Assembly (NCBI GenBank): GCA_015680685.1
Contig: MNCI01000273.1
Coordinates: forward strand, 90,324-154,323
Length of the DNA stretch: 64,000 nucleotides
Direction of reading: 5' to 3'
Source of the DNA: Gnetum montanum
Taxonomy: Eukaryota; Plantae; Gnetophyta
In this document: piece after piece, positions 1 to 46,979 of the stretch
Position numbering within the stretch: the stretch's first letter is position 1
How the letters are laid out: each line of letters begins with the position of its first letter
Translations under genes and position numbers: made by a program
The notes under the pieces: generated by a model
Seen by the model: the letters and a program-made list of their open reading frames with translations, nothing else
The model's database searches: none
What the model was told of the DNA's origin: nothing

Positions 1-1818
1 TAGAAGTAGGATTATTAGTATAGGTAATATTATAGGATCTACCATGACTTATCTATGACTAACTAGATATTCCACCTTGCATGCCATTAGGAAGTAGGAG
101 CTACTATTGTTATTATTGGAAGCTTGGTTGGTATAAGTATTTGAAGTAGGTAGGTATTTTTGAGGTATTATCATTGAGGTATGCATTTTATAAGTAACAA
201 TTAGGTATTAATGTCATCTTTTATTACATTAGAGTAGGAAGATTACATGGAGTAGCACAATAAGGATTTGAAGCTTGTCATCATTGCTACTATTGCATGG
301 GCTACGAATAAGCACCACCAATATAGTATGAATGGCTTGGGTATGGAATCATTCATGTTTACCTATTGATGAAATTGGGATTTAAAGGTATCCTATATTA
401 TACCATCTCACCAATCATGTGACCCATAACTAGATAACACTATGAATCATGAGAGTCTACATAGTATTCAAATGGATCCTTATATTCAGATGATGATGAG
501 GAAGATCCATTGGGATATCCTTGAATACTTTTAGAGTGGGAGATATTTCCTTTATAATTATGATGATATCTCTTTCTCTCTTTATATGGTGCAATAGCTT
601 TCACTATAGCTTCAACCATCTTACCTTTAATATCCTTGAGAGTAGTGGTAATCTCAAGGATATTAAAGGTAAGATGGTTGAAGCCAATATTTAAGTCTAT
701 CAAGGTCTTATTTATTCTAATATAATATTATGTTCAAGCCTCAAATGTAGTAGGAGGTTTAGTGACACCTTCAACATTTTTGGACTCTCAACTATATGAT
801 GAATCATGATTGTAATCCTTAGCTAATTGTTGCTTTCCCCATTCATCTTCCATGCTAGTAATGGTACTAATAGTGCTTTGATTTGGGCCATAAATGTTTT
901 GTACATATGGATGATCATGTACATGTTCATATGCTCTCTTGTTTTGTACCTTAACTCTTCTATAATATGCATCAATTGCTTCCTTTGGTGAAAACCATGG
1001 TTCACAAAACAATGAGCACTTTTCATGTACCTTTTCATGGTGATGTTGAGAGGCTCATAGTCCCCTTGCCTTCATTTGGCCATTTCCTTCTAGATGTTTG
1101 AAATTTAGACATATCTTTAAAATTTTTTATAGAAGATCTTGATCATGTCTACCCATATTTGATTTAATTAAGGAGGTAAATAATTATACCAACTTTCTAC
1201 ATGTTTAATGAAGGTGAGTGAAAACAACCATAACTTCTTCTAATCACTCATGATCCCTTGGATATGGAAAGCTCTGTCAAAGGCTTATGCATGCATTTGG
1301 AGATCATCACTGATATACCTTCTATATATGGATACATCAATAATGTTAATTCACTTGATTCTACTATCACAAACATGATTTCTTAGAATATGTACATCTA
1401 TCATCTACTGGTAATAATCACTCCAATCAAACAAATAAATATCATCATTGCCATTGACATGTATAGAAAAATGCAAATGTTAGAAATTGGAATAGAGATC
1501 ATCATGTTGAGCTATAGTTTAGGTGAATTCCCTAACCATGGATCTTGATGATGGGCTAGCCATTTAACTTTCTTATTTTCTATGACATCTTGCTTCTCAT
1601 TTAAATGATCATATGAGAAGATACAATCAACCTCTTATTTTACTACTTGATCTTGAAGACATTGCATTTTAAAGGACTCATAATCACCAAACATGGACTC
1701 ATGGTCCTTGTACACCATACCCTAGACTCATATTAAATAAGGCATCATAAGGTCATTTGCTGTAGCCACCACTAGGTTCCTAGAGAACTAGCCATGAGAA
1801 TCTCTTTGTCTTTCCTAC

Positions 1819-2680
1819 TAATGAGTGGAGAGGTAGCCCTAAACTCAATCATATGAATATAATCATATATGCATGATTAGGTTGAACTCTACGGATGGAC
1901 TAGTTGTGGCACCTAGACAATTATATGTTGATTGTAGTTTGCAATCTTCCCACATGGACTAGTAGTAGCTTTTTCATGTATGGTTTAGTCTAGAGTGAGG
2001 CATAAGATTTTTATTATGTTATGTTTTATTAATTTGATCAGCTAAAACAAGAATAAATGTGAGAGTAATTAAGTGCAAAGTAAATTATTGCCTAATCTAG
2101 CCTAACATAAGTAACCATTCCATTTTCTGGACACATCTTGAACTTTGAGAAACACTGCTGGGATATCAAATGCTAATCAGTTCTAAACTACCAAGTGTCA
2201 CATGTATGTTCAAAGGGGTCATGCTTGTGTGTTCTAATTAGTGTACTAATTAATCAAAACTAATTATTGAATGAATAACATTAATGTAAACTACATGAAA
2301 TCATGATATATATAAATGCATAAGAAAGAGAATCTTAAGTGCTGCAAGGTGAATCAAAGAGATCATATTTATTTCCAACAAAAATATGTTCAAGTACATC
2401 AATGATTAAATCAAGATCTAATCACACTTAGACTTCCTACTATAGGGAGTTGGAAAATATTCTAACTCTCATATGAACAAACTGCAAGAGTTTCCCTACC
2501 TGGTTTCCAAAACTACCCCTAAATCGTGTGCCCAAGGGCTATATTTATAGGCCCAAGAGTAACCTTGCGATATTGAATGTATGATATCACATATTGGGCT
2601 ATGATATCGTGTACCCGATATCATGTACCAGATATCATGGCCATCCCAATATTGGAGCTCATGTAAAACAAAATTCATCA
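1819..2680 (-). repeat. 3' LTR of element D
   Basis: Colinear with 7290-8150 and abuts the PPT. Terminal TG appears mutated to TA on the + strand. TATA-like rc CTATAAATA near 2540. Confidence 0.92.
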
Positions 2681-4699
2681 TACCCCCACAACTAAATGAA
2701 AACTCATCCTTGAGTACAGAAGAAGAGGAACAAGTTCTTTACAAAATATATTAGGAGGTATGGACTATTTGACTGACATGCAAAGTAAGATAGAGAAAAT
2801 AGACAAATATAGAAGTGCCTGAGCATAAAATATTATAATTGTGTATAAAATTGGTGTTCATGACAATAGGAAAGAACACCAACAGATCCAAATGACATCC
2901 AACCCCTCTAGGAAATATAAGAATAAGGGAGAGGTAGAAGAGATCTAGTGGTCATGAAAAATATCCCATAAGTGATATGGTTGCATCCTCCTTGGTAACA
3001 ATAGTCCCACTTCTAGTCCATGCTTTCCACTACAATCACAAAAAAACCAAAGATTAGTATATATAGTACAATAGATAATGGTTGAATACCTTCTCTCGTC
3101 AATGATTTTATTTAGCCACATTATGATTGTGATAGATTGGTTGCTTAATATTGTTAGTGGAAAGACTGATGAATGGGTTAAGTAAGCGAAGCGATCCATA
3201 CAATTTAGAAAAAGCTTAACACAAGGAATATTGGAACAAGTGTATTCACAATAATAAAAAGGATTTCACTACAAATAGTTGTGAAGGTGCACACAATTGG
3301 ATGACATAGATGGGGTAAATAAATAAATAAATTTTGATTGTAATAATGTCTGAGGATGAAGAACTTAACTTAACCTAACCAAAAGATATGCAAGTGGGTC
3401 CTCACCAAAGTAGGCACCGGTCTTTTATGCCTAAGCATAACTTCAAACCAAGAATTCCTTGGGCTTCATGGATGATTAATGGTTATGGAAAGTTAAGTAC
3501 AAAAACCCAAAAGTAACTGATTGAGAAGCCTGAAACATCAAACTAGAACATTGAATCAAAACATGAACCAACAGTGAGGTGAGGCATGAAAAGCATAGAT
3601 GGATGACAAAGAAAATGGTATGGAGTTCCTAATTATGGTCACATGAAATCCCTTGTGAAGTTTGTGATTAAATGACTTGGTAGGATCCATCCTTAGTTGA
3701 GACCAAAACCAACCACTTTCAATAACTTCACATTGACATTCTAAGGCTAGTCCATCCCTTGAGATACAAGAATTCTTCTACAAAGCAACCATCATTCCAG
3801 ATTGGGGAGAAAGTAGGAAGTAAGAAAGGGCCTTAGTTAGAGGAGGCAAGACAAGTCCTATAACCAGTGCTTGTAGCTTTTTTACTTGGTCTAAGGGATG
3901 TGCTTTGAATTCCCATGTCCTTTTTTGAATGGGAACCACACCAAGTAAACACCCATGCATTCTTTCATTTATTTTGTCCAAGGGATGTGCTTTGAATCCT
4001 CATCTCTCTCTCTCTTTTCTCTTTTTTTTCCTTTTTTTTCTACTTTTTTTGATGAGGACCACACCATTCAAGGACTTATTTGACTTCCTATTGTGGAATG
4101 ACACGGAATGGTGAGAAGCTCATGAGAACACTACCACACATAGGAAAATAGAAAAGAATGAGGAATAATGCATCCCTTTGAAGCCACACCTTGTCTGAAC
4201 CTTTGATCCCTTCCCAATTCTAGAAACTACACTAGCCACAAATTTATTAAAGTTGCATTAATGAAGAAGGGACTGCATGTTTCCAAAACAAGGAAAACCA
4301 TAGATTATGTGGATGGGTTGATGGTGTGGACTCACTACCTATTACATGAAAAGAAATCATGTCCCAATCATCAATAATGACATTGAAACTCAAAAACTAG
4401 ATATTAACAATCAAATTACAAATGAAACATACCACCCTCGAGTAGCACATTACCATTGCACCTGACATCTTATTAGTAGAAAGAGTAGAGAAACATATCA
4501 AACACAAGAAGATATATAAAAGAAAGTAAAAGATTATGCAATAAATATCAAATATATTAACGATGGTGTAAAACAAAAACTTAGAAAAGATCAATATCCT
4601 GGAAAACAAAAATATGTAAAACAAAGAATATGAAAACAAAAATTTGTAAAACCAAAAATGTGTAAAAAAAAATTTAAAAAAAACTTAAGAATCCTAGAA

Positions 4700-7230
4700 A
4701 TTAGAATGAGGGGTGACCCCCACACATAAAAACCTTGGTCATGACTAGGATTAATAAGTGGATGAATAGGATCCATGCATGTATGAAACGTTAGGGGTTC
4801 ATCATGCCCTAGCCACTGGGTGTCTATTGGTGTTATGGTGGCTAGGTAGAGAAATCGTTGATCACACACTTGATTATAAAAAGCATAGTGAGGTAGGTTA
4901 GATGATGTGTGTACATTATGAGGAAACCTTGACTAGATGGTAGCATGTATAGATTTGTGTGTCCCTTCACATTGGTGAATTCACTAGATGTTGAAGTGTG
5001 AGGTGAAGGCCTAGGTATGGTGATAGGGGCTATTGATGGGGGTAAGGAAGGTGTGGCACTAGGTTTTCCTTGGCCTATTTTAGAAGGTGAAGTAGATTCA
5101 GAAGTATGATTCTTCTTCTTACGATCATGTCTAAATAAGGGAAGCTTTCCATGTTGCGGAGGGAACCTACTTCCATTAATAGTAGTAGCACAAGTTACAT
5201 TCATTGGTTGACATGGTGGTGTAGAAACATCTAATGGAAGTGTAGAAGGAGATGAAGGATGATAATACCAAGGGTGAGGAGGAGTGTGAGAGGTATGAGG
5301 TGGTGATCCATCAGGAGAAGACATAGGTCAATGGTACTTGGGAGAGTGATAACAGTAATTGGAAGTAGAGGATTTAGAACTAGTTGGAGAAATAGGATGT
5401 TGGACATAGTAGGCATTTGGGTTTTGTCAATAGGAAGGATGTGGCTGACTAGATGGTGGCCTTTCCCATGCCTGTGAGTTTTGCCACTACGGTGGAGAAA
5501 AGTGTTGAGGCTGGTAATATTTCACCTCACGATAGTATAATGGATCATGGGGTTGTCCATACTTACCTTGTGGAAAAGGGATGTGCCTAAATCAATACCT
5601 TTGTATGAATTTTTGGTGCAGCCTCCCTGCCCAATGCTCCTATAGATGTCGCAAGACTGGGTAGCAACCCTTTGGATGATCATATAAACAAACCTCACAT
5701 CCATCCTCATTATCTATAGTTGAGCCTTTGGCCTCATTACCATTAGTCATACTCCTTGGTTACTAAATAGTGTCCTTAACTATTTCTAATTTCTATGCGC
5801 TATATTTGTTTTGATTGCTAGGTTTATTTTGGATGATCCTCTCCCTAATAGTATCTTCTAAGTTCACACTTTGTTCATTTTCCCATGTGGTCATCTTGTT
5901 ATGCTTCACCTCAATTTCATCTATTCATTTCTATATTGGCAAAGGTTGGGACTGTATCACCCTTTCAAAATTACTTGTTTCCTTTTCATTGTGTCTTTGG
6001 ACCCTTGTTATTTCTAGAGTTGGATCCTGCTCAAATGCTATGGCATTCTCCCATTTAGATAATTCTCTCTCTTCTTTTTCTAGACACTCTATTAGTTCTT
6101 TGACCTGTTGGCCTTGGAGCTTATATAGTTGTCCTTGGACATACTTTCCAAGGTTCACCCTTGTTTCATTTCTAAGACCATCTATAATATGGAGTATTTT
6201 CTCTTTCTTGGAGAACCTATGACCTAGACATTTATTTACTAAGGCATAGTATCTATCCAAGGTTATGTCTAAGGGTTCCTATTATTCTTGTTTCCATCTT
6301 GAATTTGTCTCCTCAAGGTAGACACTTGTGCATAAGTCTAGTATCTTTTAGTGAAAATTTATAGCATGGTTGACCATTGTCTGATCGAATTTGATTCCAA
6401 TGATCTATACCACACTTTGGCTTTATCGATTAGTGTGCTAGGAAAGAGCTTAATATATTTTCATTTAGTTTCCACATTGTTGAGCATACAAGCATCATGG
6501 AAGGCTAGTAAATGATGTTGTGGATCTGAATCATAGCCTCCTAAAAATTTTAAAATATTATTCAAGTTGAGCTTAGGTAGTTGACTCTTCTTCTGATGCC
6601 TGTGAGATATCTTAATAGCCTCTATGATGTGCATTAGGCTTTTAGGGACTAATATGGGTTTATTATCATCATCAGATAGGTGGTGATTAAAATATCTATT
6701 TGATCGATGGTGACAATGGGACTTGTATTCATGTTGATGACCTTGAATATGTTCATGGGTTTGATTTTTATTTTACTCTAACCCTTTCATGGAGATCTAT
6801 CTTTATTCCTACGTTCATCTTCATTAGAACTAGATGTTGAAGTTGAGGTGGAAGATGAAAAGGAGGAACTGGTAGGACAACCATGGCTTCTATACTGTTC
6901 CTCATGGTCCCTTGGTTTATCATTTCTAAGTACTGAGAAGGTCTTAGGCCTTGAGTCCTTTCCTAGTTTAGGATTGATGTCATCTCCTTCAAGATTTTCT
7001 ACCTTAGGTAAATGTAGTCTTTGAGTGTTGTTAGGGTGGTCATGGTCATGAAGAACCCCTTCATAAGATGGATTGCTCCAATATTTTTCATTGTATACTT
7101 TGTTAGTTCTCCAATGAATAGTTGTGCTATGTAGTTCATAATCATTTCCACGTAAGTGAGAAATTGTTATTGATTTGTAGTGTGTGTTTGAATAATTTTT
7201 GAAAGATATATTGTTAATACCATTTTATAG
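4700..7230 (-). pseudogene. gag: Decayed gag of element D (retrotransposon gag domain plus Pro-rich C-terminus)
   Basis: Minus-strand translation LPKLNLNNILKFLGGYDSDPQHHLLAFHDAC...KLFPSTLIDKAKVWYRSL..NSI fits Retrotrans_gag. ORF fragments 5931-6260 and 4842-5324. Stops and frameshifts present; boundaries approximate. Confidence 0.85.
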
Positions 7231-7289
7231 AGATCTTGTATGATATAACTAATCTAGATAACTAGCACCATCCTCAGCAATAGTGCCAA

Positions 7290-8150
7290 TGATGAGCCAC
7301 GAGGTACTACACTCAACCATACAAATATGAGCATGTATGCACGATCCAGTCAAACTTCATAGATGGATTAGTTATGGCACCTAGATAGTTATATGTTGAT
7401 CATAGTTTGTTGTCTTCCCACTTGGACTAGTAGTAGCTTTGTTACATATGGTTTAGTCTAGAGTGAGGCATAACATTTTTATTATTTTGTGTTTTATTAA
7501 TTTGATCACCTAAAATAAGAATAAAAGTGAGAGTAATTAAGTGTTATGTAAACTATTTCCTAATCTAGCCTAACACAAGTAACCATCCCCACTTTCTAGA
7601 AACATCTTGAACTTCGAGTAACATTGCTAGGCTGCCAAATGCTAATATCTTCTGAGCTACCAAGTGTGAGACATATGTTCAAAGGGGTCATGCTTATGTA
7701 TTCTAATTAGTTTCTTAATTAATCAAAACTAATTACTTAATGAATAATATTACTATAAATTACATGAAATCACGATATATATAAATGCATAAGAAAGAAA
7801 ATCTTAAGTGCTGCAAGGTGAATCAAAGAGCTCATCTTTATTGCCAACACAATGGTGTGTTCAAGTAAATCAATGCTTGAATAAAGATCAAATCACACTT
7901 AGACCTCCTGCTGCAGGCACTTGGAAAATATTCTAACTCTTAAATGAACAAACTGCATGAGTTTCCCTACTTGGTTTCCAAAACTACCCCTGAATCGTGT
8001 GCCCAAGGGCTGTATTTATAGGCCTGGGAGTAACCCTATGATATCAAATGTACAATATCGCATCTTGGGAAATGATATTGAGTACCCAATATCATGTACT
8101 CGATATCGTAGCCACCCCAATATCGAAGCTCATGTAAAAAAAATTCATCA
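7290..8150 (-). repeat. 5' LTR of element D
   Basis: TGATGAG...TTCATCA. Abuts the PBS and is followed by TSD CCTAC. Confidence 0.92.
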
Positions 8151-9079
8151 CCTACTTATCTTAATGTTAAGCAAGCACAATTGGTGGAAAGGTCTTATGT
8201 TTTGAATGCTCAAAGATAACAAAATTCCTTCATCTTTTTGGTACATTATTAGAGGCCTTTGATGAGCTCTTGGCATTATCTACCATTTCTCTTATGTTCA
8301 CAACCTATGCACACAACACTAAAACACACATTTGATTTGAATAATAATTAAAATCAAGAATGTATAGTTATTTTTGGATAATTAAAAAACAAAATCCTTG
8401 GAAATGTTATAATGATAGGATCTCACCCATTTTGGGCCAATGGGATATATCATACAAATCATAGTGTGATCCAATCATAATCTTCAAGGATGATGTTGAG
8501 TGGATTACTAAGAAGACTCATGTGTATCATTATATTTAATAAATATAAAAGATATTATAATACATATGATATGAATAGAAACCTATGTTGCAATGGTGTA
8601 AGATTGAGAAAATGTTTATAATTTTTTGTTTTATAATTTTTATGGATTTTATTCTTATAAGAAACAAACAAACAATAATAAACACACACACATTACAATA
8701 CCACCTAGTGATAGTAGAAATGTTCATGTTACAATCCCTCAAGGAATAGGTGCAACACCACATGTACACACATAAATACAATATAAACAAAATGGCTCTT
8801 AGTCATAACCTTGATGACTCAACATAATGAATTACAGATATGATCTCCTTGGGTAAGGTTGAATCATCATAGCTTATGAAAAGAAGAAATGAATAAATAT
8901 TTTTATGGATTTAATATTTTATAAATTTTTTTGATTTTAATGTTTAAGTCATTAATAGTGAAAAAATGAGGAAAAATCATAAGCTTTATTCACCATGCAA
9001 TCACTGGACCCCACATTGATTGAATGGTTTTGAGATACATAAGCATGGTGGTGCTCTGATAGAGTCTAGCCATACTTGT

Positions 9080-10136
9080 TGATGAGTGGCGAGGTACCTC
9101 TACACTCAACCATACGAATACAAGTGTGTACGCATGATCTGGTCGAACTCCACAGACTAAATGCCTTAACGCCACAAGAAACACTTGGGGTTAATCATTC
9201 GTTGTCTTCCCAGGCTTGCTTGTATGTCTCATGGTGTATGGTTAAGCAAGTTTGAGGTATATGATTTTTTTGGTATTTCTTAGTTTATCTCCTAAGCTAT
9301 GAGGGAGAGGCTTGAGAAACTAACTAACTCTAACTAATGTCCTAAGTCTAAATTAACTAGCGTCAGCATCCGTTCCCACTTACTGGACACACCCTGAACT
9401 ATGCAACTGTGGCTACTAAACGCTAATCATTACTGGGATCACCACACGTAACGCAAGTGCTCGAAGTGGTCATACTGAGGCACCTATTTAGCCTAAGTGT
9501 GATAAGTAGCCGATTCCTTGGCTAGCTGTACACACCCGTGAGTGCTCGTAGCCAAGTCGTACTTATCACACGTTCTAGCCTAGCGATGAGTAGCCGATTC
9601 CTTGACCAGCCGTACACATTGGACTACTATTGGGATTGCCAAGCGAAAATCCTGGAATATGCTACTGGGTTATCAAGCAGTGACAATGCTCATAATCAAG
9701 TCGTACTCACGCGTTGCGATGAGCAGCCGATTCCTTGATTAGCCGTACACACCCGTAGGTGCTCGTAATCAAGTTGTACTCGTGTGCACTAGAAAAGCAA
9801 TAAATAACAACAAAATAAAACTATGTACCACAAGGTTTATCCAATCAAGTTCATATTTATTACCATACACAACTTGTGTTCAAGTTACAAAGTTGCTCAA
9901 ATAAAGAGCCGTTCACTCTAGGACTCCTACTGTGGGCACATGGGAAATTAATCTAACTCTGGAGTGTTCAAACTGTCAGAGCTTCGCTACTTCTAGCCAA
10001 GATTGGGAAATGAAGGGAGTGCTACCTCTTATTTATAGATATGGTGGTAGACCTCGATATTGTGTACGTGATATCGCATGGAGAGACGTGATATCGCGTA
10101 CGCGATATCGCAACTTGTGCAATCTGCGTCTCATCA
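9080..10136 (-). repeat. 3' LTR of element A (1057 bp)
   Basis: Direct repeat of 15323-16427. TATA-like rc CTATAAATAAG at about 10028-10038. Poly(A)-like AATAAA (rc) near 9857. Confidence 0.95.
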
Positions 10137-10172
10137 TACCCCCATGACTGAATGAAAACTTGTCCTCGAGTT
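10137..10172 (-). promoter_or_regulatory. Polypurine tract with upstream CTCGAGGAC motif (element A)
   Basis: rc AACTCGAGGACAAGTTTTCATTCAGTCATGGGGGTA immediately before the 3' LTR. The same block occurs in B, C and D and resembles the Athila GAGGAC...TGGGGG PPT context. Confidence 0.85.
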
Positions 10173-12058
10173 CCTTACAATGATATCAGGTAGGTATGGG
10201 ATTATTAAGGTAAATGAAACTAATGGAATGACATGTGAACGGTTCATTATTACAAGACTTGGCAAACTGGTGTTCGAGACAATAAGCATGAACACCTTAT
10301 TACAATGACATCAGGCCACATTTGGCAGCTGAGAGAAAAGAGGAGAGAGAATAGAAGAGAAGAAGAGAGAAGAGTCTTGTTGCTGCCAACGCCTAGATTG
10401 CGCCTTTCGTTGTCCATCTGTAAGCGCATTATCAATTCCACTCCTTGCATGCTGCTTCAGCGCTGCTCCATTCCAAGTGTCTGCTCCAGATCCATTCTGT
10501 TGTTGTATGATTGCCATCTGCACACACAACACCATCATATATTAGCAAGGGTAATTGAATCATTAAGTAAAGCATACCTTGCTTCGGTTTAGGTTCCTTG
10601 GCTAAGTTGTGGTATGGCTGATATGGATCTAGGAAAATGTAGATGATGACTACCGAAGGCATAGGGGTTAGGAAGAAAAACGAAAAAATCCGGGGCTTAG
10701 GATAAAAATCGAAAAATCAGGCCCCGTACCCCCATGACTAATCGCGAACCTCCGGTAGCGTTAGAATGGAGAGAGAAAAGGAATAGGAATGATAGGTAAA
10801 AAGGGACAACTATGGCATCGATAAAAAGGATGTCATGATGGAAATGAACAAAAATGTTAATTAATTGCAAAACGTTAAGGAAAAGAAGTTAACTAATGTT
10901 CCAAATAGGAATGTCAGTGGGTCCTCCCCAAAGCAGGCTCATGCCCTTAATGGCCTGACAATCCCACATGCAAAGAGTCCATAGGCTCTGGAAATTTCCT
11001 TTGGAACAAGAGTTAAAGTCTTAACAGTAAGAATTTACCAAAAAGAAAACAATGCATCAACCAAAATATATACACTAATGATACAATTAGCAATGAGTTG
11101 AATAGTGGAGAGAAGGGTGGAGAGAAGGGAAGTGGAATGGAATCCCAAGAACAAGGTGGTGTACAACCCCTTGTGTGTTTTATGATAAATGTGACTTGGT
11201 GAATCTCATTCCAATTCTGGCTCAAACCAACCACTTCCAGTGACTTCGCATCAATGCATTTGGTTAAACCATCCAATTGGATAACAAGGATGCATCTTCA
11301 AAGAGACACCACCATTCCAACGAAACAACGGAGAGAATGGGAAGTGAGAAGGGCCTTAGTTAGAGGGAACACTTTGGTTCCATAACCAGTGCTTGCAGCC
11401 CAAATTTTATTTCGTCTAAGGGGTGTGCTTTGAATCCTCACTTTGGTTTTTTTTTTTTGTGTTTTGTGTTTTTATGTGCAGGGACCACACCATGCAAAGA
11501 CTTCTTTATTTTTATTGTCTCAACTTCCGAAGAATGGGTAACATCAGAATGGTAAGAAAACTCAAGAAGAAAACATCCAAGCACCCAAGTGAATGACCAA
11601 CACAAGAGCACCAAGTTCCCTTGAAGTCATACCCTTTGCAAGCCTTGAGTCCGTCCTTAGTTTGAGAAATACCCAGTCACCAGTTCGTTAAAGTTCTTAT
11701 TAGAAAAGGGGACTATACATTTCCAAGCCAAGAGAAACCATAGACTCTGGTGGATGGATGGATGAAGTGATCTCATTGCCTACCATATCAAAAGAAACAT
11801 ACCTTAGTATTAACATTGGAACTTAAAGGTAAAAACCAAACATTAGCAATTAATGAAAAATAGTTCATCCCATCGGTCTAAACACTTATTGGGTGATGAA
11901 CTTACATGGTGGATAACACACACACACACATAAAAAATAGAAAAGTATAACGATGGTATAAAAAAAAACATCAAAAGTTAAAGAAAGTTGTAAAAAAAAT
12001 GTGTAAAACAAAAATGTTGTAAAACAAAAACCAAAAAAGAACTGAGGGCCCCATATGG

Positions 12059-15024
12059 TTAGCATAGGTGGCCATCTCCCCAATGACTGAGTTGTAAGGG
12101 AGAGATCCGAAATAGTGAGCGCCTATTTGAATTTCTAAGAAGTGCCCAACTTCTCCCAATTGATGATCTTAAGTTGAGGGGTGGAAGTTGGCGACGCTCA
12201 CGTTCCAATGTGTCTATGCCACGGTTGTTGGCATGAGTTTCCTCAGTTCGTTCCATGCATATTTGTTTGCCCCTATGAGAAGCTGTCAACCACAGGGTGT
12301 CTACTACTTCTTGTGTGGTTGCTACATACAGGCATCTTTGTTGCAGAGTTTCTTGGGCACACCTGTTACATGGAGACATTTCCTCCATGTCATCACCCGA
12401 TGAATCACTGTATGTGATGCATGGAACTATCCTCTTCTCGATCTTTCCACATATGTTTATCTTAGAGATTTCCAAGGAAAGATCGCGGATCCTAAGGCAT
12501 GCATCTACTGTGCTTAGCCATGCCCTTCCCATTATAATGGGGAAGTCCCCTTCGTTGTTGTTCACTTTGATCACTAGAAAGTTAGCTGGGTAGGACCAAC
12601 CACACCCAGTGGTAATAACGTCCTCCACCAATCCCAAGGGAATGGTGATGGACTGGTTTGCCAGCTCTAGTTGGATATTGCTCTTCTTAAGTTGTGGTAG
12701 GTTCCAGGCGTGATACATCTTTTGCGAAATTAAGTTGACTCCAGAACCTGAGTCAAGAAGAGCTCGATGTGGTGCATTTCCAGTGATTTGCAAATAAATA
12801 AATGGACTCCTAGGGTCAGTTAGTTTCTTGGGAAGGTGGCCTACCTTGATCCAGTCAGTTACGGTATGTGTTAACATAACTGTATGCATTACACTCCTTT
12901 GGATTGAAGGGTTCTTCGAAGCCTTAGTGGTTAGAGGCCTATACATGTACCCATCTACTTGTTGTTGCGAGAGTTTGTCTGGGCTCCTAGTTCTGGAAAA
13001 AGGTCTCTTCTTTGTACAGTTGTAGCCAGAACTAGCACTCGGTCAGATATTTACATGCTGAATATTTACAGCTCTCGCAGCATTACATTGCTACGGTTGG
13101 GTAGGCAATTCCCCCTGCATTGTTAGAATAGGTTGTATGGGAACTATAGGTGGAAGAGGTGCGGGTGGAGTTAGAGGATGGACAAAATGTGAGATTTCTC
13201 TCGGAGGAGAAGGAGTCCTTCTGAAGTACTCCCGAGCTTGGTAGTGATGTTGGGGGGTAGTGTGACCCATAGAGTCACCTAGAGAAACTGGCTGCTGCAC
13301 ATAATAACCATAAGAATCAGGCTGCCGGTAAGGGTATTGATGTGTTGGCAGTGGCATCGATGTTGTCCAATGGTTTGTGGAGGCATTCCACTTGGATAGT
13401 ACGTCAAGGGTTGGTGGAACTGCCTTGGATTACCTTGTGGGTAAGGTAACCTTCGGGGTGTTTGTCATTGATTAAGTCTTGGATTTAATGCATACACCCT
13501 AGACTCCTACAGATGTGAGATAATTGAGCAACATCCCTTAGGATGGTCATAGTAGTAGACCTCACATCCACTATCATTGTCTGAATCAGAATTTACAACC
13601 TCATCGAAGATAGGAATTTTTCCCTTACCCTTGTTATGTGCAGGGCTTAANNNNNNNNNNNNNNNNNNNNNNNNNNNNNNNNNNNNNNNNNNNNNNNNNN
13701 NNNNNNNNNNNNNNNNNNNNNNNNNNNNNNNNNNNNNNNNNNNNNNNNNNNNNNNNNNNNNNNNNNNNNNNNNNNNNNNNNNNNNNNNNNNNNNNNNNNN
13801 NNNNNNNNNNNNNNNNNNNNNNNNNNNNNNNNNNNNNNNNNNNNNNNNNNNNNNNNNNNNNNNNNNNNNNNNNNNNNNNNNNNNNNNNNNNNNNNNNNNN
13901 NNNNNNNNNNNNNNNNNNNNNNNNNNNNNNNNNNNNNNNNNNNNNNNNNNNNNNNNNNNNNNNNNNNNNNNNNNNNNNNNNNNNNNNNNNNNNNNNNNNN
14001 NNNNNNNNNNNNNNNNNNNNNNNNNNNNNNNNNNNNNNNNNNNNNNNNNNNNNNNNNNNNNNNNNNNNNNNNNNNNNNNNNNNNNNNNNNNNNNNNNNNN
14101 NNNNNNNNNNNNNNNNNNNNNNNNNNNNNNNNNNNNNNNNNNNNNNNNNNNNNNNNNNNNNNNNNNNNNNNNNNNNNNNNNNNNNNNNNNNNNNNNNNNN
14201 NNNNNNNNNNNNNNNNNNNNNNNNNNNNNNNNNNNNNNNNNNNNNNNNNNNNNNNNNNNNNNNNNNNNNNNNNNNNNNNNNNNNNNNNNNNNNNNNNNNN
14301 NNNNNNNNNNNNNNNNNNNNNNNNNNNNNNNNNNNNNNNNNNNNNNNNNNNNNNNNNNNNNNNNNNNNNNNNNNNNNNNNNNNNNNNNNNNNNNNNNNNN
14401 NNNNNNNNNNNNNNNNNNNNNNNNNNNNNNNNNATCTTCCCTTTTACTTTTACTCTCTCCATTATGCTCACGATGGTTGCGCCCAGATGTGGAAGGAGAG
14501 TGTGAATGGTGAGATGAAGGAGAAGAGGAAGGGGATCCATCACCATGGTGATGTTTCTTACCTTCTCTTCGGCTACTTTGGCCTCGATTGTTGTAATGAT
14601 CTAAGTGTCTATCCTTAGTATGAGTGGTTGTTCCTACCGTGAACAGTTGGTGCTCACGGGGATCAGAGCCTATAGCATGTATAGTTGATCGAAGGCCCTG
14701 ATGGTTAACCTCTCCACTAGAGTGAGGAGGAGGAACATCATTTTCTAAGAAACCCATTGTGAGGGGTTCCTCGTCTTCTATTTCACTAATGACATGGGGG
14801 ACCTTTCCCTTCAACAATGAATGTTGGCTCTCTTGCCTTGCATCCCTCATACGTTGCAAAGCGGTGGGATGATAATCCCTTATATGGTATCTTCCAGCAA
14901 CGTATTTAGCGAATAAGTCCTACATGTCAATCTGTGCCAATCCACGGAAAAGCATGTTTGGAACAGATCGATCTGGTGGTAAAAATATATTACCAAACAA
15001 ATCTCTCTCCAGCCAACTATTCAT
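12059..15024 (-). pseudogene. gag-pro: gag-protease polyprotein remnant of element A (interrupted by the N gap, stops and a frameshift)
   Basis: ATG at 15024 (MNSWLERDLFG...). The 12059-12946 ORF has an aspartic protease: LPKKLTDPRSPF...RALLDSGSGVNLI...PIIMGRAWL. Zn-knuckle-like GCEVYYYDHPKGCC near 13530-13570. Confidence 0.9.
13651..14433. other. Assembly gap (783 N) within the gag of element A
   Basis: Run of N. Its flanks align with element C at about 48560 and 49545, i.e. within gag. Confidence 0.99.
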
Positions 15025-15303
15025 CCTGATGGAGGGTAAAAGTGTAATCAGGAATATACTCATCGAGATGAGTATAAGTTATCGTATACTGTTTAGGACA
15101 TGGCTGGTCTCGGTTATGCATGTGATGCTGACTGTCTCCTGTGTTGTCCTTAGGTGAGTTAATTTCATGAGAAGAAGCCATCCTAATGGTGTGCTGTTTT
15201 TTACCATTAATTAATTTTTATTGATTAACTCGAAGGTTCGTTGGGGCTCACAACGATGTGAGTGATATCCCTTATGTTTACTTGGTGTAAAAAACACTTA
15301 GTC

Positions 15304-15321
15304 TCCCCGGCAACGGTGCCA
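15304..15321 (-). promoter_or_regulatory. Primer binding site, tRNA-Asp type (element A)
   Basis: rc TGGCACCGTTGCCGGGGA, one mismatch to the complement of the plant tRNA-Asp(GUC) 3' end. This PBS is typical of Athila. Confidence 0.9.
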
Positions 15322-15322
15322 A

Positions 15323-16427
15323 TGATGAGTGGCAAGGTACCCCTACACTCAACCATACGAATATGAGTGTGTACGCGTGATCCGGTCGAACTCCATAGAC
15401 TAAATGCCTTAACGCCACAAGAAACACTTGGGGTTAATCATTCGTTGTCTTCCCAAGCTTGCTTGTATGTCTCATGGTGTATGGTTAAGCAAGTCTGAGG
15501 TATATGATTTTTTTTGTATTTTTCAGTTTATCTCCTAAGCTATGAGGGAGAGGGTTGAGAAACTAACTAACTCTAACTAATGTCCTAAGTCTAAATTAAC
15601 TAGCATCAGCATCTGTTCCCACTTACCGGACACACCCTGAACTATGCAACTATGGCTACCAAACGCTAATCATTTCTAGGATCACCACACGTAACGCAAG
15701 TGCTCAAAGTGGTCATACTGAGGCACCTATTTAGCCTAAGTGTGATAAGCAGCCGATTCCTTGGCTAGTTGTACACACCCGTGGGTGCTCGTAGCCAAGT
15801 CGTACTTATCACACGTTCTAGCCTAGCGATGAGTAGTCGATTCCTTGACCAGCCGTACACATTGGACTACTACTGGGATTGCCAAGCGCAGATCCTGGAA
15901 TACGCTACTGGGTTACCAAGCAGTCACAATGCTCGTAATCAAGTCGTACTCACGCGTTGCGACAAGCAGCCGATTCCTTGATTAGCTGTACACACCTGTA
16001 GGTGCTCGTAATCAAGTCGTACTTGTGTGCACTAGGAAAGCAATAAATAACAACAAAATAAAACCATGTACTGCAAGGCTTATCCAATCAAGTTCATATT
16101 TATTGCCATACACAACTTTTGTTCAGGTTACAAAGTTTCTCGAATAAAGAGCCGTTCACTCTAGGACTCCTATTGTGGGCACATGGGAAATTAATCTAAC
16201 TCTGGAGTGTTCAAACTGCCAGAGCTTCGCTACTTCTAGCTAGGATTGGGAAATGAAGGGAGTGCCGCATCTTATTTATAGATATGACGGTGGACCGCGA
16301 TATCGCGTACATGATATCACATGGAGAGACGCGATATCGTGTACGCTATATCGCAGGGGATGCGATATCGTGTCGGCCGCGATATCGCGTACACGATATC
16401 GTGGCTTGTGCAATCTGCGTCTCATCA
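15323..16427 (-). repeat. 5' LTR of element A (1105 bp)
   Basis: Direct repeat of 9080-10136, 48 bp longer because of extra GATATC palindrome units. Confidence 0.95.
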
Positions 16428-21589: not shown

Positions 21590-24500
21590 TAGATTGAATA
21601 GCTTAGTTCCATTCATATTAGAAATTTTGAATGTGCCACTGCCAAAGGCCTTAGTGACTAGAAATGGCCCCTTCTAATTTGGCTCTAACTTGTTAGCAAG
21701 TTCAGGAATAACTTTTACAACTATGTCACCTTCTTTAATTTTTCACTAATTTAGGTTGATGTGTTGTCATTGCCTTTTCGTTTCTTGGTATCACTTGATA
21801 TCAACAAGTGCTTGTAAGTAGTGTTTATATGCAAAGTCAAGGTTGATGATGTCCTATGTATAAATTTGATCTTTATTAATATGATCAAATAAGACTACTC
21901 TCAATGATGGATCTATAATTATAAAGGAAAGATATTGTTAGATTCATATACAAGGTTGTAAGATGTGATAGTAGTTATGGTACAAAAAGTTTTTCTAAAA
22001 TCCTATAGTATGTATAATAGTTGTTGATGTCATTTTCTTTTGTTACTAATTATGATCTTCTTAAGAAGGTTGATTATAGTCTTGTTACTAGCTTGTACCT
22101 AACCATTTTCTTGTGGGTAATATGGTGTAGAAAATGAATGTTGGATACCTAATTATTTATAGAAAGATTTTGTTTTACTACTACTAAATTAAGACCTAGT
22201 ATCCATAATGATAGTAAGTGATAGGTCAAATTAGGAAATGGCCAAATCATGAAACGATGTTATTAAGTATAAACTAGCAAACTTGTTGCAATGTTATCTA
22301 TCTTAATGAGATGTCTTCTACCCATTTTGTAAAGTATTCTATGGTAGTAATGATGAAACTATGACCTACAAATGACTTAGGTGTTATGAGTACACTAATA
22401 ATGAGACCCCAACATTGGAAGGACCAAGTTATCTATATTGTATGTAATTCTATTGGTGGAACATGAATAAGGTCACTATGTCATTGATAAGTGTCATAAG
22501 GTTTTACTTTTTTCATGTAGTCATGCTTCATATAAAGCAAATAACAACCTAAACACCCAATCTTGGTAGTCATAGATCTAGCTCGAGTATGTCCTTCACA
22601 TAGACCTTCATGCACTTATTGTAAATTATCTAAGCTTGATATTTTTCAAGGAAAACTAATAATATAAAATCATATAATTTTTTACATAGTATGTTATTGG
22701 CTATGATAGTACATTATTCAACTCTCTTGCATATAACATCCTTTTAGGTTGAACCTAAATGTTGAGGAAGTTCATCATATGGTAGGTAATACTTAATATC
22801 ATCAAACCACTTAGGTTGAATATCATTATTTATAATGGTGATAAAAATGTCTTTGTGTTCTTGCATTATGGGTTAAGATTAGGCTACTATCATTGATGGT
22901 AATTTATATAGAACTTCAAGAGTTACAATTAACAGGAAAGTAGCTATGGCATCTACTTAGGCGTTTTCATTATAAGAGATATGTTGGATGTTAGTGTATT
23001 TAAAGATTTCAATTAAATTTTATCCAAGTTATGGTATGATAATAGATGTTTAACTTTACAAGAAGAGACATAACAAGAAGTTAAAAATCACCCTTAATAA
23101 TTAGCTAAGTAAACCTTTGATTATGAGCCACCATGAGCATGTAAATAAGACCTTCATACTTACCAACATTATTAGTACATGGGAAGTGAAACATAAAAAT
23201 AAAAATAAAAGATGTCACCTAAATGAAAGAGGAGAATGATTGTAGTGCTAGCCTCATGTATGTTAGATGCCCCATCAAAATTGTATATGACTTCAAATCG
23301 TTTGGGTAGACTTTTAATAGCTTTGATATGCTCATCTAGAAATCCAAGTTCTATGGTACTATTGTCTATGATAGGGAGTGCAACCATTTGACTAGTGATA
23401 GCCTATCCTTTAGTTGTAGTTTGTGAAATGAAATGTAAATCAAATTGGACTACTATGGATTTATATTGAGCTATCTTATTGTTTTGATATATATTAGAGA
23501 TGATAACCCTTAATACATTGTCTTTACAAATAATGTTTGCCTTTTCTTAGAAAAGGTAGTCTCGCCACTTATTTATGGAATAAACTAAAGATAAGTAATT
23601 CCTTTCAACTATGATGTAGTAGGTTTCATAGGCCCCAAGGGTGTGAGTTAGAGATAATAGATAGGTGTGTAGACCCATCTTATTGTCTTTGACAAAGTAA
23701 TAAAGCTATAGACATGTAAGAATGCCAAGTATATGTAAAATAAATTTTCTTTTTATGACAAGTACATTGTTAAAAATCAAGTTAATTCTTGCTTGTTTTC
23801 ATCAAAGGTAGTTTGGCGCTTGTCATCCCAATTAAAATTGACATCCCTTTTGAGTAAGTGTTACATAGGTTGTAGTTTATTACTTAATATAAATATGTAC
23901 TTATGAATGAATTGCAAACTTCCTTCTATACATTATAGTTCTTTAAGGTTATTAGGGATTAACATGTTCATTATGACTTTGAATTTATCTAGGTTAATAT
24001 GTATTTCTACTTTTGAGACTTAGAAACCAAGCATTTTTTTTATTTTAATAGTAAAAACACATTTCTTTAGACTAAAGATCATACTCAAGATAGCATTGTA
24101 GAACAACATGTAAGTGTTCAACATGGTTGCTAGCTATTTTTAATTTCACTACTATTTCATCTACATAATCATTTACTAGGCTATGCATAAGATCATTGAA
24201 AACGTATGTCATAGGTCATTGATATGTTGCCCCAATATTCTTTAATAACAAAATGTCCCCCAAGGTGTCATGAAAATTATATATAACTAATGTTATGGGT
24301 TAATTCTAATTTTTTTATATCCTAAAAACTCATCCATAAAGGATAGTAATTCAGGACTTGCTATTATATCAACAAGTTGGTCAATACATGGAAGAGAAAA
24401 TCATCTTTAATTATTTATTTGTTAAGGTTGTAGAAAATCTGTATATATATATATATATATATGATTTCTCTCGTTTTTCTTAGGTACTATAACCATATTG

Positions 24501-24900
24501 GAAATTCAATCTATGAAATTCATTTCTCTGATGAAACCAACTTAATATCATTTGTTAATTTTATCATGAATGTCCAAGTCTAGGTCACGAAAAAATTTAC
24601 AAACATTTTGTTTGACTAACCTAATCTTAGGATCTAATACTATATTATGTTGGATCATCCACAAGTCTCATACTAACATGACATCATAGGACTATGCAAA
24701 GACTTCAACATTCTTTTATACTATCTTAATAAATTTGTGTATGTGCTCTAACTTTAAGGTAGAGCTTAGTTTTAGGATTTCTTTTTCATCTTTTTGATTA
24801 GCAACCAAGGTTTCTATGAGGGTATCCTCAATTATATCATCAACTTCTATGTCTAGCATTCGTATTAGATGTTTAGGCCACTTGGTAGGCTTGTCAATAG
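21590..24900 (-). pseudogene. pol: Decayed Tat/Ogre-type Ty3/gypsy pol (RT-RH-aRH-INT)
   Basis: RT KNIGATYQ*PMTYVFNDLMHSLVNDYVDEIVVK at about 24150-24245. Extra RNase H YNFDGASN at about 23270. INT WSFQCWGL..LITPKSFVGH at about 22360-22430. C-terminal KLEPN*KGPF at about 21660-21690. Confidence 0.9.
24442..24462. repeat. (TA)n microsatellite inside the RT remnant
   Basis: TATATATATATATATATATAT at the position expected for the R.C.DF motif. Confidence 0.9.
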
Positions 24901-25425: not shown

Positions 25426-26302
25426 TGATGAGTCATGATTTGATCTACTTTGATATCGAATATCCAATATCGGAGCCTCGATATTGGATACCTGATATTG
25501 GAGCTCAAGAAGCGATGTCGATATTCAATATCATCTCCTTTGTGCCATCCTTTAAATACAACACTTGGGGACATAGTTAGTTTTAGTTTTTGATAGCCTT
25601 TCTTAGATTTCTAAATTTAAGTTCCAGTATTCCCAATGCATGTTTGCAATGTGATTTTTGTGATTGTATGACATCCTTATTCGAGTGCGATGTACTTGGA
25701 TACTTAACATGATTGGAAATAAAGATAGAGATTACCTCCATCATTACAACATCCACTTAGATTCATTATTTATTTAATTATTTAATTATTTAATTATTTA
25801 TTATCTTATTTAGTTAATGCTTCTATTTATTTCTATTTACTATTCTTGTCATTAAGCAAAATGAGTACAACCTAATCACAAGCACTTAAGTGTAATTACT
25901 TGGTACCCTAGCAGTGTATCATTTGGCAAGCTTAGTGACATATGCTTGGTAATCCTAGTAGTAGGCTCACAAAGTCCAAGGTGTGTGTGGATGATTAAGA
26001 ATAATTACTCATCTCACGTAGGCTAGTTTAGACTTTACTTTCCATTGTTACTTAGCTTAACTAATTAATCTCTTTATTGTCATTAGGTGTAGCATAGAGT
26101 TAAACAACATCATCATATGCCTCACTTTGGACTAAACCATACATAATAAAGCTACAACTAGTTCATGTGGAAATACAACAAACTATGATTAGAGCATAAT
26201 GATTTAGATGCACAACTAGTCCCATCAATGAAATTTGACCAAATCATGCATGGACACTTGTGATTTGTATGGTTGAACATAAGGATACCTTGCTACTCAT
26301 CA
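25426..26302 (+). repeat. 5' LTR of element B
   Basis: Direct repeat of 32111-32987, followed by the PBS. Confidence 0.92.
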
Positions 26303-26349
26303 TTGGCATCATTACTAGGGATGATGCTAGTTATCTAGATTAGTTATAT

Positions 26350-28910
26350 TACACATAATCACTATAAATTCACTAACAATCTATCTTTTAGAAAATATTA
26401 AATCATAGACATCATTAATTAAAAACAATGTCTCTTTCACAAGGAAGTGATAATACATTATACGGTGAGAACATCCATTGGAGAAATAAAGAACTATATG
26501 TTGAAGAAATTAGAGTAACCAACCTTATGCAAAGGTTTCATATATTCATGAGCATCCTAACAACACTCAAAGACCACATTCACCTAAGATAGACAACCTT
26601 GGAGGAGATGAAGTAAGTCGTGGATAGGGAAAGGCCTCAAGGCCTAGGACCTCCTTGAAATCTAGAAAGGATAAATCATAGGACCATGGGAAACATCATA
26701 GAAGCCATGTCATCCCTCCTTGTTTCTCATCTTCCTTTTCCCCCTTTGCATCTAGGTCTAGTGAAGATGAACATAGGTATATAGGTAGAGCTTCACTATG
26801 GGGTCAAGATAAAAAAAAATGGAATATGCAAAAATACTCAAGGTCATTAACATGAACAAAGGAAAAATCATTGTAATCAATCAAATAGAAACCTTCATTA
26901 CAACATGATCGATGATGATGAACCATTTTTGGCCACTACAAGCCTAATGTAGATCACAAAGGTAGTTAAGATCTCTCACAGGCATCGCAAAGAGAGTCAC
27001 CTACCTAGGCTTGATATGAATAATATTCTTAATTTTGTAGGAGGCTATGATTCAAATCCACAACATCATTTACAAGTCTTCTATGATGCCTGTATCTCCA
27101 AAAAAATTGAAAGTGGGTGGCAAAAGCTCAAGCTTTTTCCTAGGATACTAATTGATAGAGTTGAAGTGTGGTATAGATCATTGAAACCAAATTCAATCAA
27201 ATGGTGGTCCAAAATGGTAGAAATTTTCAACAAGAAATACAAACCTATGCAACGGTGTCAAACCTGAGGAGACAGATCCAAGGATGGAAGTGGACATGTC
27301 CTTAGATAGATATTATTCCTTATTTAATATATGACCATGTCATGATTTCTTTAAGGAAAGGAAACTTTTCCACATCATAGATGGACTTCATAATGAAATA
27401 AGGGAGACCCTTGGGATATATGTCCTAGGTCAATTATATGAGCTATGAACCGATTAGATCTAAGAGTAAATCAAGTATGTGGCAAAAGAAGAAGGAGAAA
27501 TATGCAAATGGGAGAATGTTGAGAAAAATCATTGGGACCCACCTCTCCAAAAGAAGAAGGTCCATATCTATGGTAAGGAGAAAGAGACTGCTCTTGATCA
27601 GGTAATCCTGTAACAAACCTTAACAATACAAAAGTCTATTGATGGACTTGAAGCAAAGTTTAATAGGATGTGAGAAGGGATATATGAAAATGTTACAACT
27701 CTCATAGAGATGGTAGAGGAGAAGTTAGTGCAAACCAAACTAGGAGATCGTTATAAATAGAGGCCACAATACCACAAAGTAGCTAGGAACACTTTTTCCA
27801 TGTAGGAAAAATGGTTGAGAAAAGTGAGGTTATAGACTCAAACACAAACAAAGGCAATGGATGTGATATCTACATATATGACCATCCAAAGGGTCATTTC
27901 CTGATCTTGTTGCATCTACATGAGTATTGGGTAGGTGCATTAAATCTAAAGTATGTACAGAAGCACATGCCCAAGAGATTTCCTTTTTCACATAGTAATG
28001 ATAGATAGTTCCACAACTAATCGTACAATCCAAAGGGGACTTATTACCAACCTCAACACTATCATCAACTACTATGGTAAGAAGCATAGCCATGGGGGAG
28101 GCCACCACCAAACAAGCCCCATTCTTCCTATCAGTCAAAACCCCACACGTATTATGTTCAACACCCTATTTCTCCAACTAGATGTATGTCCTCCATGTCA
28201 AATCACTAATACCACTCTCTTGAGTACCATCAACCCATGACATCCCCTAAGGGATCACCACCTCATGCCTCTTACCATCAATTCTACCCTCGATATTTTC
28301 ATACTCCACCTCATCACACATCACCGCTGGTAGCATAGGAAGGTTTGGAATCACACTATGAACTAATGAATATCACTTATGCTACAAATGTGCATAGAAA
28401 TGTTTATGCGAGTAGATTCCCATCAAAAAATTGGAAACATGCTTTCTTTAGGAAGGGATGTGGGTAGAAGTAAAACACCCATGAACTAACCACATCATCC
28501 AAACTAGCACAATGCCAATTTGGTGCAATGCCTCCCTTGTCACCACCATCATCCTCTAATCTCACACAAGGACCACCATCCACTATTACTCCAATCCCAA
28601 ACCTAAGCAATGAATCTAAAAATTTGAGAAGAAAAATTAATCCATGCATACCATATCATGATCAAGGATGTAATCATGAGTTAGAAATTCATAATGTTAG
28701 CACACCTTTTACTCTGATCTATCATACATTTAATAATCAAGTGTGTGATCAACGATTTGTCTATAAAACCATTACAACACCAATAGACACCCAGTGGCTT
28801 GGAAATGAATGATTACCAATGTTTTACACATGCATAGATCCTATCTATCTACTTATTAATCCTTGTCATGGCCAAATGTTTAGTCATGGGGGTCACCCCC
28901 CATTCTAATA
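26350..28910 (+). pseudogene. gag: Decayed gag of element B
   Basis: ORF 27016-27267 MNNILNFVGGYDSNPQHHLQVFYDAC...LKLFPRILIDRVEVWYRSLKPNSIKWW. Colinear with the gag of D. Confidence 0.87.
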
Positions 28911-31917: not shown

Positions 31918-32110
31918 GCTTCCCTAATTTTGTGTCTTGTAATATTGTGTTCTAATTTTTGTAAAAACACCACTATGACATGTAAGAGTACATTTGGTTG
32001 TTTCTTTGTTTGAGTTAATCAATAATTTCATATCTTCATAATATTTTGTAAAAAACTTGTTCCTCATTTTGTTTAACTCAAGGATGAGTTTTCATTCAGT
32101 CGTGGGGGTA

Positions 32111-46950: not shown

Positions 46951-46979
46951 AAAAGAACTGAGGGCCTCCAATGATTAGC

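Follow-up and report, generated by a model that had tools for sequence, protein, structure and literature searches.

A tandem hairpin module, probably a selected sense-RNA element, in the U5 leader of non-autonomous LTR elements of Gnetum montanum

Introduction

In the RNA of the LTR retrotransposon Ty1, Gag binds the structured 5′ end, and this region, which includes a pseudoknot and the palindromes PAL1 and PAL2, has been linked to packaging and dimerisation of the RNA as well as to Gag binding in the account of PMC6844567. Among plant reverse-transcribing viruses, CaMV and RTBV are described as having a long leader upstream of the primer-binding site (PBS) with many upstream open reading frames (uORFs), where a large stem-loop serves packaging, export and shunting (PMC5902531, PMC8421220), and in CaMV this leader contains a signal to which the coat protein binds (PMC5902531). 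The export elements CTE, MTE and RRE are reported to have irregular stems in common, in which purine-rich internal loops recur and offer proteins several sites to bind (PMC4488727). Within plant LTRs themselves, Sireviruses keep palindromes of changing sequence, that is, repeated hairpin units whose number and sequence vary among families and which sit in the cis-regulatory part of the copia LTR (PMC4728375), and retrozymes, which are likewise non-autonomous plant LTR elements, have a structured RNA, the hammerhead, in their LTRs (PMC4918200). Non-autonomous LTR retrotransposons with only GAG or GAG plus protease have been defined as TR-GAG elements (PMC6022998).

How the RNA of a plant LTR retrotransposon is chosen for packaging, export and translation, and how non-autonomous elements borrow the machinery of a helper, are largely open questions. 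A literature search, with most subscription papers outside its scope, returned structural work for Ty1, retroviruses and pararetroviruses, none for the U5 region of plant gypsy elements and no description of the motif reported here, and a 2026 survey of non-autonomous elements (PMC13570524) has no mention of hairpin, secondary structure or packaging.

The module analysed here lies in the U5 region of nine related LTRs in a stretch of 64,000 nucleotides of Gnetum montanum DNA (the window) and shares traits with several of these systems. As in Ty1, it would structure the 5′ end of an LTR-retrotransposon RNA, but it has no shared palindrome and no pseudoknot in its model, and its tandem array lies wholly in U5 upstream of the PBS. 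The leaders of CaMV and RTBV contain one long hairpin, whereas one to four separate short modules are found here, and no sequence likeness was noticed. From CTE, MTE and RRE the modules differ in their loop sequences, their U5 location and the absence of any Rfam match. Unlike the Sirevirus palindromes, they stand downstream of AATAAA, their loops are asymmetric and conserved, and they show a sense-strand bias; the counterpart of those palindromes is likely to be a GATATC block upstream of the TATA box. The carriers differ from retrozymes in having no hammerhead, a length of 6.4-7.6 kb and gag or gag-protease remnants, and the TR-GAG label covers the carrier only, no description of the module for TR-GAG elements having been found in the literature searched. 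Taken together, the module is real and undescribed and is probably a selected sense-RNA element of putative function, richer than first noted, which plausibly works like a leader packaging or transport element.

The carrier elements

The nine LTRs, in a window of 33% GC with depleted CpG, make up four two-LTR elements (A, B, C and D) and a solo LTR (E; Table 1). They had been taken for five separate families; all nine are homologous and form one lineage. LTR-pair identity is 93% in A, 88% in C, 84% in B and 85% in D, and A, B, C and E are flanked by 5-bp target duplications. CTCATCA ends all four 5′ LTRs and is followed by a common PBS, intact in A and C and decayed in B and D. This PBS we take to be of the tRNA-Asp type, which is typical of Athila elements. 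In the text of PMC6317226, a tRNA-Asp PBS is attributed only to non-chromoviruses.

Gag and the aspartic protease are retained in A and C, and gag remnants only in B and D. Eleven polyprotein queries gave no match to reverse transcriptase, RNase H or integrase inside A, B, C or D, 783 bases of A being N. The original prediction had called these elements enzyme-less, which goes too far, as A and C keep the protease and only these three activities are missing. Such a content, with GAG or GAG plus protease, is that of TR-GAG elements, which the carriers also resemble in their 5-bp target duplications and tRNA PBS; with a PBS that we assign to tRNA-Asp and 5-bp duplications, they likely belong to the Athila/OTA branch of gypsy (PMC6317226). 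An HMMER protein search matched plant gypsy relatives, with gypsy polyproteins of plants as the nearest named proteins (32-41% identity), and found no close autonomous partner, and a word-indexed search gave no longer protease homologue among 180 candidates.

Several minor features lie in or near these elements. The run of 783 N, at 13651-14433, falls within the gag region of A. Cys-His zinc-knuckle-like motifs (C-x2-C-x3-H) are seen in the gag regions of C (about 48440-48480, minus strand) and D (about 5675-5700, minus strand), and, in the non-coding 3′ part of three elements, the gag-protease region is directly followed by an A-rich tandem array of 15-nt units (C, 46640-46960; D, 4560-4690; A, 11980-12040). 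Decayed remnants of reverse transcriptase, RNase H and integrase at 58127-60594 and 21946-24589, both on the minus strand, belong to other gypsy elements, without recognisable LTRs of the nine-LTR lineage.

Table 1. Elements, LTR features and module copies in the window
Feature	Position	Strand	Remarks
Element A	9081-16427	-	two LTRs; target duplication CTTGT
Element B	about 25426-32987	+	two LTRs
Element C	44058-51258	-	two LTRs
Element D	about 1817-8182	-	two LTRs
Solo LTR E	61824-62719	+	target duplication ATTGG
A 3′ LTR	9081-10138	-	93% identical to A 5′ LTR
A 5′ LTR	15323-16427	-	93% identical to A 3′ LTR
TATA-like box, A 5′ LTR	16273-16281	-	same position in all nine LTRs
AATAAA poly(A)-like signal, A 5′ LTR	16099-16104	-	177 nt after TATA
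PBS of A	15304-15321	-	matches site in other three elements
Likely gag reading-frame start of A	15017-15181	-	frame broken in A; probable gag by inference
Aspartic-protease ORF of A	12062-13042	-	score under the Pfam cut-off; identity to plant gypsy polyproteins 27-41%
A 3′ LTR module 1	9360-9482	-	long form with a P2 of 6 bp; two inner units (about 9444 and 9418); held-out model match, E 4.5e-8
A 3′ LTR module 2	9499-9569	-	short; CACG loop; fold z -5.2
A 3′ LTR module 3	9583-9713	-	long form; two inner units (about 9675 and 9641)
A 3′ LTR module 4	9716-9786	-	short; C-UACG-G cap at 9758-9753
A 5′ LTR module 1	15603-15725	-	held-out model match, E 2.5e-7
A 5′ LTR module 2	15742-15812	-	C-CACG-G cap
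A 5′ LTR module 3	15826-15956	-	two-fold symmetric inner domain (in silico fold)
A 5′ LTR module 4	15959-16029	-	stem parse, model and RNA reads
B 5′ LTR module	25858-26015	+	three inner units
B 3′ LTR module	32556-32713	+	three inner units
C 5′ LTR module	50711-50841	-	held-out model match, E 5.3e-5
C 3′ LTR module	44346-44469	-	held-out model match, E 6.4e-5
D 5′ LTR module	7572-7700	-	decayed; held-out model match, E 4.4e-4
D 3′ LTR module	2104-2231	-	decayed; held-out model match, E 1.4e-3
Solo LTR E module	62283-62411	+	held-out model match, E 1.2e-5

Architecture of the module

A stem parse recovered all 15 predicted module copies, each in the sense orientation and with the expected reading, four per LTR in A and one per LTR in the other families; rare read or contig joints that drop or repeat units are, at their low depth, a hint only. 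The order of segments is common to all 15 (P1 - CGA - P2 - CGA - P3, which reads GCAY - insert - P3′ - a 7-nt loop strand - P2′ - a loop strand of 6 to 8 nt - P1′), where P1 consists of AGUA plus about 3 bp, P2 of 6 or 8 bp and the insert of 6 to 95 nt. The uniform pattern proposed at first stands in general, with exceptions: D has a C.U mismatch in P2 of both LTRs and AGCA in P1, and the short modules A2 and A4 are unbranched. The left-half pattern occurs five times in the window and in none of 100 shuffles. Coding overlap was rejected: the module is not coding, and no uORF that begins within an A module is longer than 16 codons.

One pattern recurs in both outer internal loops: CGA stands opposite G-W-M-(U)-C-G-G-N, and the CG can pair with CG. 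The short modules are closed by the caps C-UACG-G or C-CACG-G, exact in two of the four short copies and with one change in the other two, and RNA reads give mostly UACG for the loop of module 4 (position 15997: 37 of 48, 46 of 53 and 68 of 70 reads). We take these caps to be tetraloops of the UNCG/YNMG class, which are stable in RNA. Both the caps and a repeat within the insert had been overlooked. What had been described as a variable insert is not random: the long inserts carry a second motif, N-N-Y-U-UGG-(3-5 nt, mostly Y-R-A)-CCA-G-Y-A, present as two UGG-loop-CCA-GY units in A1, A3, C, D and E, as three in B and not at all in the short modules (the script that located them also printed four spurious overlapping matches and missed one decayed D unit).

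The helix joining neighbouring inner units covaries (AGCG/CGCU, AACG/CGUU, AGUG/CAUU). Their UGG/CCA pairs do not covary, so this part of the model is less certain. The minimum-energy fold of module 3 is a rod with a two-fold symmetric loop; an alternative inner domain, a junction with small hairpins, is possible and is the sole modelled arrangement that places the three units of B. No palindrome is shared across the module families, and five of the 13 modules tested have no exact palindrome of at least 6 nt, so that a dimerisation palindrome of the Ty1 type was set aside; the computed self-dimer gains of 5-12 kcal/mol, being at the level of any hairpin, were left out of the evidence. Inspection also ruled out that AGUA/GAA forms a bulged-G (sarcin-ricin) motif or a kink-turn, since AGUA is paired to U(A/G)CU and the register is set by P2. 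A kink-turn has a 3-nt bulge with tandem G.A and A.G pairs behind it; here the left strand does contain GA and the bulge reads GAA, but the GA that should follow it is missing.

Pairing, covariation and model search

Stems that change sequence and stay paired were the core of the original prediction, and the counts bear this out. Across the 15 modules, 254 of 271 stem cells pair (224 Watson-Crick and 30 G-U), the remainder being eight A-C and nine other mismatches, while module identity between families, at 45-82%, is no higher than in the remainder of the LTR; what is conserved in the module is pairing, not sequence. For eight representative modules, own partner strands pair at 93% and swapped partners at 62%, a difference reached by four of 40,320 permutations, phylogeny being ignored. 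Within the class with an 8-bp P2 (eight copies), 96.7% of 152 cells pair and seven of 19 pairs change on both sides; none of 500 shuffles reaches the cell count and five of 500 reach the number of double-changed pairs, whereas slid controls pair at 23-43%. These permutation and shuffle tests do not model descent, and the five families are not five independent witnesses because they have one common origin.

The measure of further pair types in the same class was not above shuffles (480 of 500). All double changes inside the 8-bp class are G-C/A-U transitions, which methylation-driven decay can mimic, and one apparent double change, in A module 4, coincides with CpG sites; transversion-type changes occur only between the 6-bp and 8-bp classes and beside P1.

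A covariance model trained on the eight copies with an 8-bp P2 recovered all seven held-out copies, next in rank and all in sense (E 4.5e-8 to 1.4e-3), with the best background match at E 0.1. All 15 copies score on the sense strand, and the best antisense score is 9.3 bits. The single weak match of note, at 57592-57676 on the minus strand (E 0.1), covers the outer P1-P2 part and lies just downstream of the decayed integrase end of an unrelated pol remnant; it may be due to chance and was left out of the module count.

Single-sequence folding was less discriminating. Only module 2 clearly beats shuffles (z -5.2 and -4.4), and its antisense strand performs just as well. Nine of the 11 long copies have z above -1, the whole A array gives -1.4 in sense and -0.5 in antisense, and for the short modules, folding differs little between the two strands, whether computed for RNA or for DNA. 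When the complete A leader is folded, modules 2 and 3 form as modelled and modules 1 and 4 mispair.

No Rfam 15 family matched the 64 kb at gathering threshold, and at E up to 10 only weak unrelated matches outside or across the modules appeared, which, with the literature search, is in keeping with the view that the motif is not a described one. A 5S rRNA-like segment, as in Cassandra, gave no match at E up to 10, and no hammerhead was found in the LTRs by the Rfam search or with the core pattern. A pattern scan of metagenomes gave 36 loci, all in one bacterial coding stretch of 70-73% GC unrelated to the window; in viral contigs a loose pattern gave 121 chance loci, one with a downstream complement, also by chance, and two strict patterns gave none.

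Evidence for the sense strand

Pair states common to both LTRs of an element predate its insertion. Among 114 such states, 99 are Watson-Crick, 12 G-U, one A-C and two other, in contrast to the 13 states that differ between LTRs, with five G-U and five A-C; C/T and G/A differences between LTRs are balanced overall (149 against 167). As the 12 common G-U states fall in only five columns, the G-U bias has p 0.11 (5:1), or p 0.055 (8:2) with population polymorphisms, and Fisher p 0.052. The argument first drawn from the G-U wobbles of module 3 is weaker than it appeared, one of the two (15850) being private to the element in the window: its G is replaced by A in 97-99.5% of contig depth.

Polymorphisms were taken from genomic contigs of four runs (3,179-7,113 contigs per run), with shares that stand for contig depth, not copy number. 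Thirteen positions in 15735-15965 vary at 12% or more, five of them in stems, and four of these five keep sense pairing via G-U exchange: 15794 (C-G or U-G, 58-70%), 15921 (G-U or A-U, 49-94%), 15828 (about 50%, except for one run with 0) and 15785 (14-25%, except for one run with 2.5%). The fifth, 15903 (13-24%), breaks pairing at a CpG. At unphased loose contig ends there are more variants of P2, the left-strand ones complemented by those on the right, and the read data contain a C-G to U-A double change within the family.

None of the runs listed for the LTR is recorded as RNA; the RNA reads come from runs with the same species label and stem from many family members. For the pair 16002/15995 both partners are changed relative to the element in the window, in 49 of 50 and 45 of 48 reads in run X21 and in 73 of 73 and 68 of 70 in X24. 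In two stranded runs 80% and 83% of the reads over the modules are sense, against 51% in an unstranded run, with strand assigned by the usual library convention and depth inside the element low.

Position in the leader

In all nine LTRs a TATA-like box and AATAAA stand 168-180 nt apart and the modules lie downstream of both, as originally predicted; the first module begins 258-340 nt after TATA and the last ends 280-314 nt before the LTR end. Sense RNA depth in the two stranded runs peaks at 16111-16338, drops three- to five-fold just past AATAAA and still reaches the modules, and nine RNA molecules begin at 16240. Being downstream of AATAAA and covered in sense, the modules therefore belong to U5 and would occur once in the leader of the predicted genomic RNA, near its 5′ end and upstream of the PBS, a placement expected of a packaging signal.

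The leader runs for about 1,070 nt before gag, with at least about 420 nt between the module end and the likely gag AUG (15181). Fourteen AUGs precede this start; 13 lie in the stretch from the TATA region to the end of the LTR, and the other is at 15207. In eight of nine LTRs the first uORF stops 141-214 nt short of the first module, in E 56 nt short of it, and a later uORF stops 8-11 nt before the AGUA of the first module in four of nine. Fifteen of 35 RNA joints were listed, and none of these has ends of the intron type in the sense direction; no pile-up of read ends was seen in the modules, which for RNA reads is a weak test.

Upstream of each TATA, in U3, a palindrome-rich GATATC(G) repeat block (16290-16410, 10050-10115 and equivalents) varies in copy number between LTRs.

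Function and alternative explanations

The covariation, a G-U bias with p about 0.05-0.1, the UNCG-type caps, the placement relative to TATA and AATAAA and the sense-biased reads together argue for the original proposal of a selected sense-strand RNA structure in the U5 part of the leader, which we regard as very probable. Drifting stems, fixed asymmetric loops, stable caps and two-level repetition suggest the anatomy of a multivalent protein-binding RNA, and from this anatomy the module is likely a docking site for the capsid protein of the element or for a host protein; the analyses run do not distinguish between Gag, an export factor and the ribosome as partner. Gag binding and packaging is the leading candidate for its main job, an attribution that we hold tentatively and short of probable. 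The hairpin array would fold in the sense RNA leader of the non-autonomous gypsy elements and serve as a multivalent Gag docking platform that picks the element's own RNA for packaging. The stems would be a scaffold free to drift, and the recognised surfaces would be the asymmetric CGA / G-W-M-(U)-C-G-G-N loops, twice per module, together with the UGG-loop-CCA-GY units. More copies would then give higher avidity, by which a helper-dependent RNA could compete for particles containing the Pol of its helper.

The carriers supply Gag but need the Pol of a helper, and carrier RNA must therefore enter particles; the zinc-knuckle-like motifs persisting in the gag regions of C and D are consistent with this assignment to Gag, for which the leaders of Ty1, bound by Gag (PMC6844567), and of CaMV, bound by the coat protein (PMC5902531), are precedents. 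The distance of the modules from the PBS, about 280-315 nt upstream, counts against packaging, retroviral packaging signals lying mostly downstream of the PBS. The widest form of the proposal is speculative and rather doubtful: a new class of retroelement RNA, namely a structurally defined packaging or export signal built as a two-level array of tandem CGA-loop hairpins with zero to three symmetric UGG-loop-CCA units, whose multiplication would let helper-dependent elements out-compete autonomous RNAs for particles and help to inflate a plant genome. As a compact motif of 60-150 nt with natural variants, covarying stems, copy-number variation and thousands of variant contigs per genomic run, the module is suited to the direct design of probing, binding and reporter tests.

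Two other roles for the same sense RNA seem unlikely as the main one, to about the same degree. The structure might recruit the translation machinery, by internal entry or shunting, for a gag reading frame behind a long leader, as the 14 AUGs, the heavy structure of the leader, the absence of sense intron-type joints among those listed and the later uORF ending just before the module in four LTRs would favour. Against it stand the about 420 nt that separate the module end from the gag AUG and the tandem multiplication, which is unusual for an IRES. A canonical shunt, in the terms of PMC5902531, requires a 5′-proximal uORF ending at the stem, and here it falls 56-214 nt short in all nine LTRs, on which ground the pararetroviral layout was rejected. 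Alternatively, the module might bind a host protein and act in nuclear export or RNA stability, in the manner of CTE, MTE, RRE or the CaMV leader. Its long stem and repeated purine-rich internal loops resemble RRE and CTE anatomy as presented in PMC4488727, the inner domain in the fold of module 3 is two-fold symmetric like CTE, and the CaMV leader is reported to enhance export and to bind ALY and MOS11 in vitro (PMC8421220). The likeness in symmetry is confined to the in silico fold of module 3, B having three units for which the junction fold is also possible. CTE has two-fold symmetric internal loops in a rod; its TAP/NXF1-binding loop word is absent from all nine module regions, and TAP is absent in Arabidopsis; a CTE-type element was accordingly rejected.

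A function of the DNA is improbable, whether in minus strong-stop DNA during reverse transcription, into which U5 is copied, or as a palindrome region that binds proteins or gives rise to siRNAs, comparable to the Sirevirus palindromes, themselves of changing sequence (PMC4728375). The equal folding of the short modules on both strands, as RNA or DNA, would suit it, but inherited states, unlike private changes, show more G-U than A-C on the sense strand, the UACG/CACG caps can be read on the sense strand only, the model scores every copy in sense, and upstream of TATA the nine LTRs contain a palindrome block of their own, separate from the modules. Equally improbable is that the module is left over, without selection, from an inverted duplication in an ancestor, template-switch correction and methylation-driven decay of G-C to A-U having held its arms similar. 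The single ancestor of all copies, the transitions that make up most double changes and the CpG sites under the apparent double change of A module 4 fit such a relic; arm correction should, however, erase asymmetric loops, yet these are kept twice per module across families 45-65% identical, with G-U pairs at fixed columns and P2 stems that differ between the two classes in length and by transversions. More improbable still is a self-cleaving ribozyme of an undescribed class, comparable to the hammerheads in retrozyme LTRs: conserved loops and covarying stems in the LTR of a non-autonomous element have that precedent (PMC4918200), but no Rfam family relevant to one appeared at E up to 10, hammerhead and hairpin core words are absent from the nine regions, the weak test of read ends gave no pile-up, and the element retains its promoter and poly(A) signals.

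Other structures in the leader and the window

In the fold of the A leader, AAUAAA pairs with a downstream GU-rich tract (16047-16109, minus strand; 11 bp, p 0.93), an arrangement that resembles a poly(A)-occluding hairpin. A possible second structure lies at the U5 end (15323-15500, minus strand, and the matching 3′ ends of eight LTRs), where two long-range helices comprise 18 pairs; 90.6% of 138 cells are paired, against 28-41% in slid controls, and the helices are unproven because they have no double changes. RNAalifold favours local hairpins with some covariation in this region. Elsewhere in the window there are unrelated tandem duplications of about 505 nt at 34591-35610 and of 174 nt at 52695-53044.
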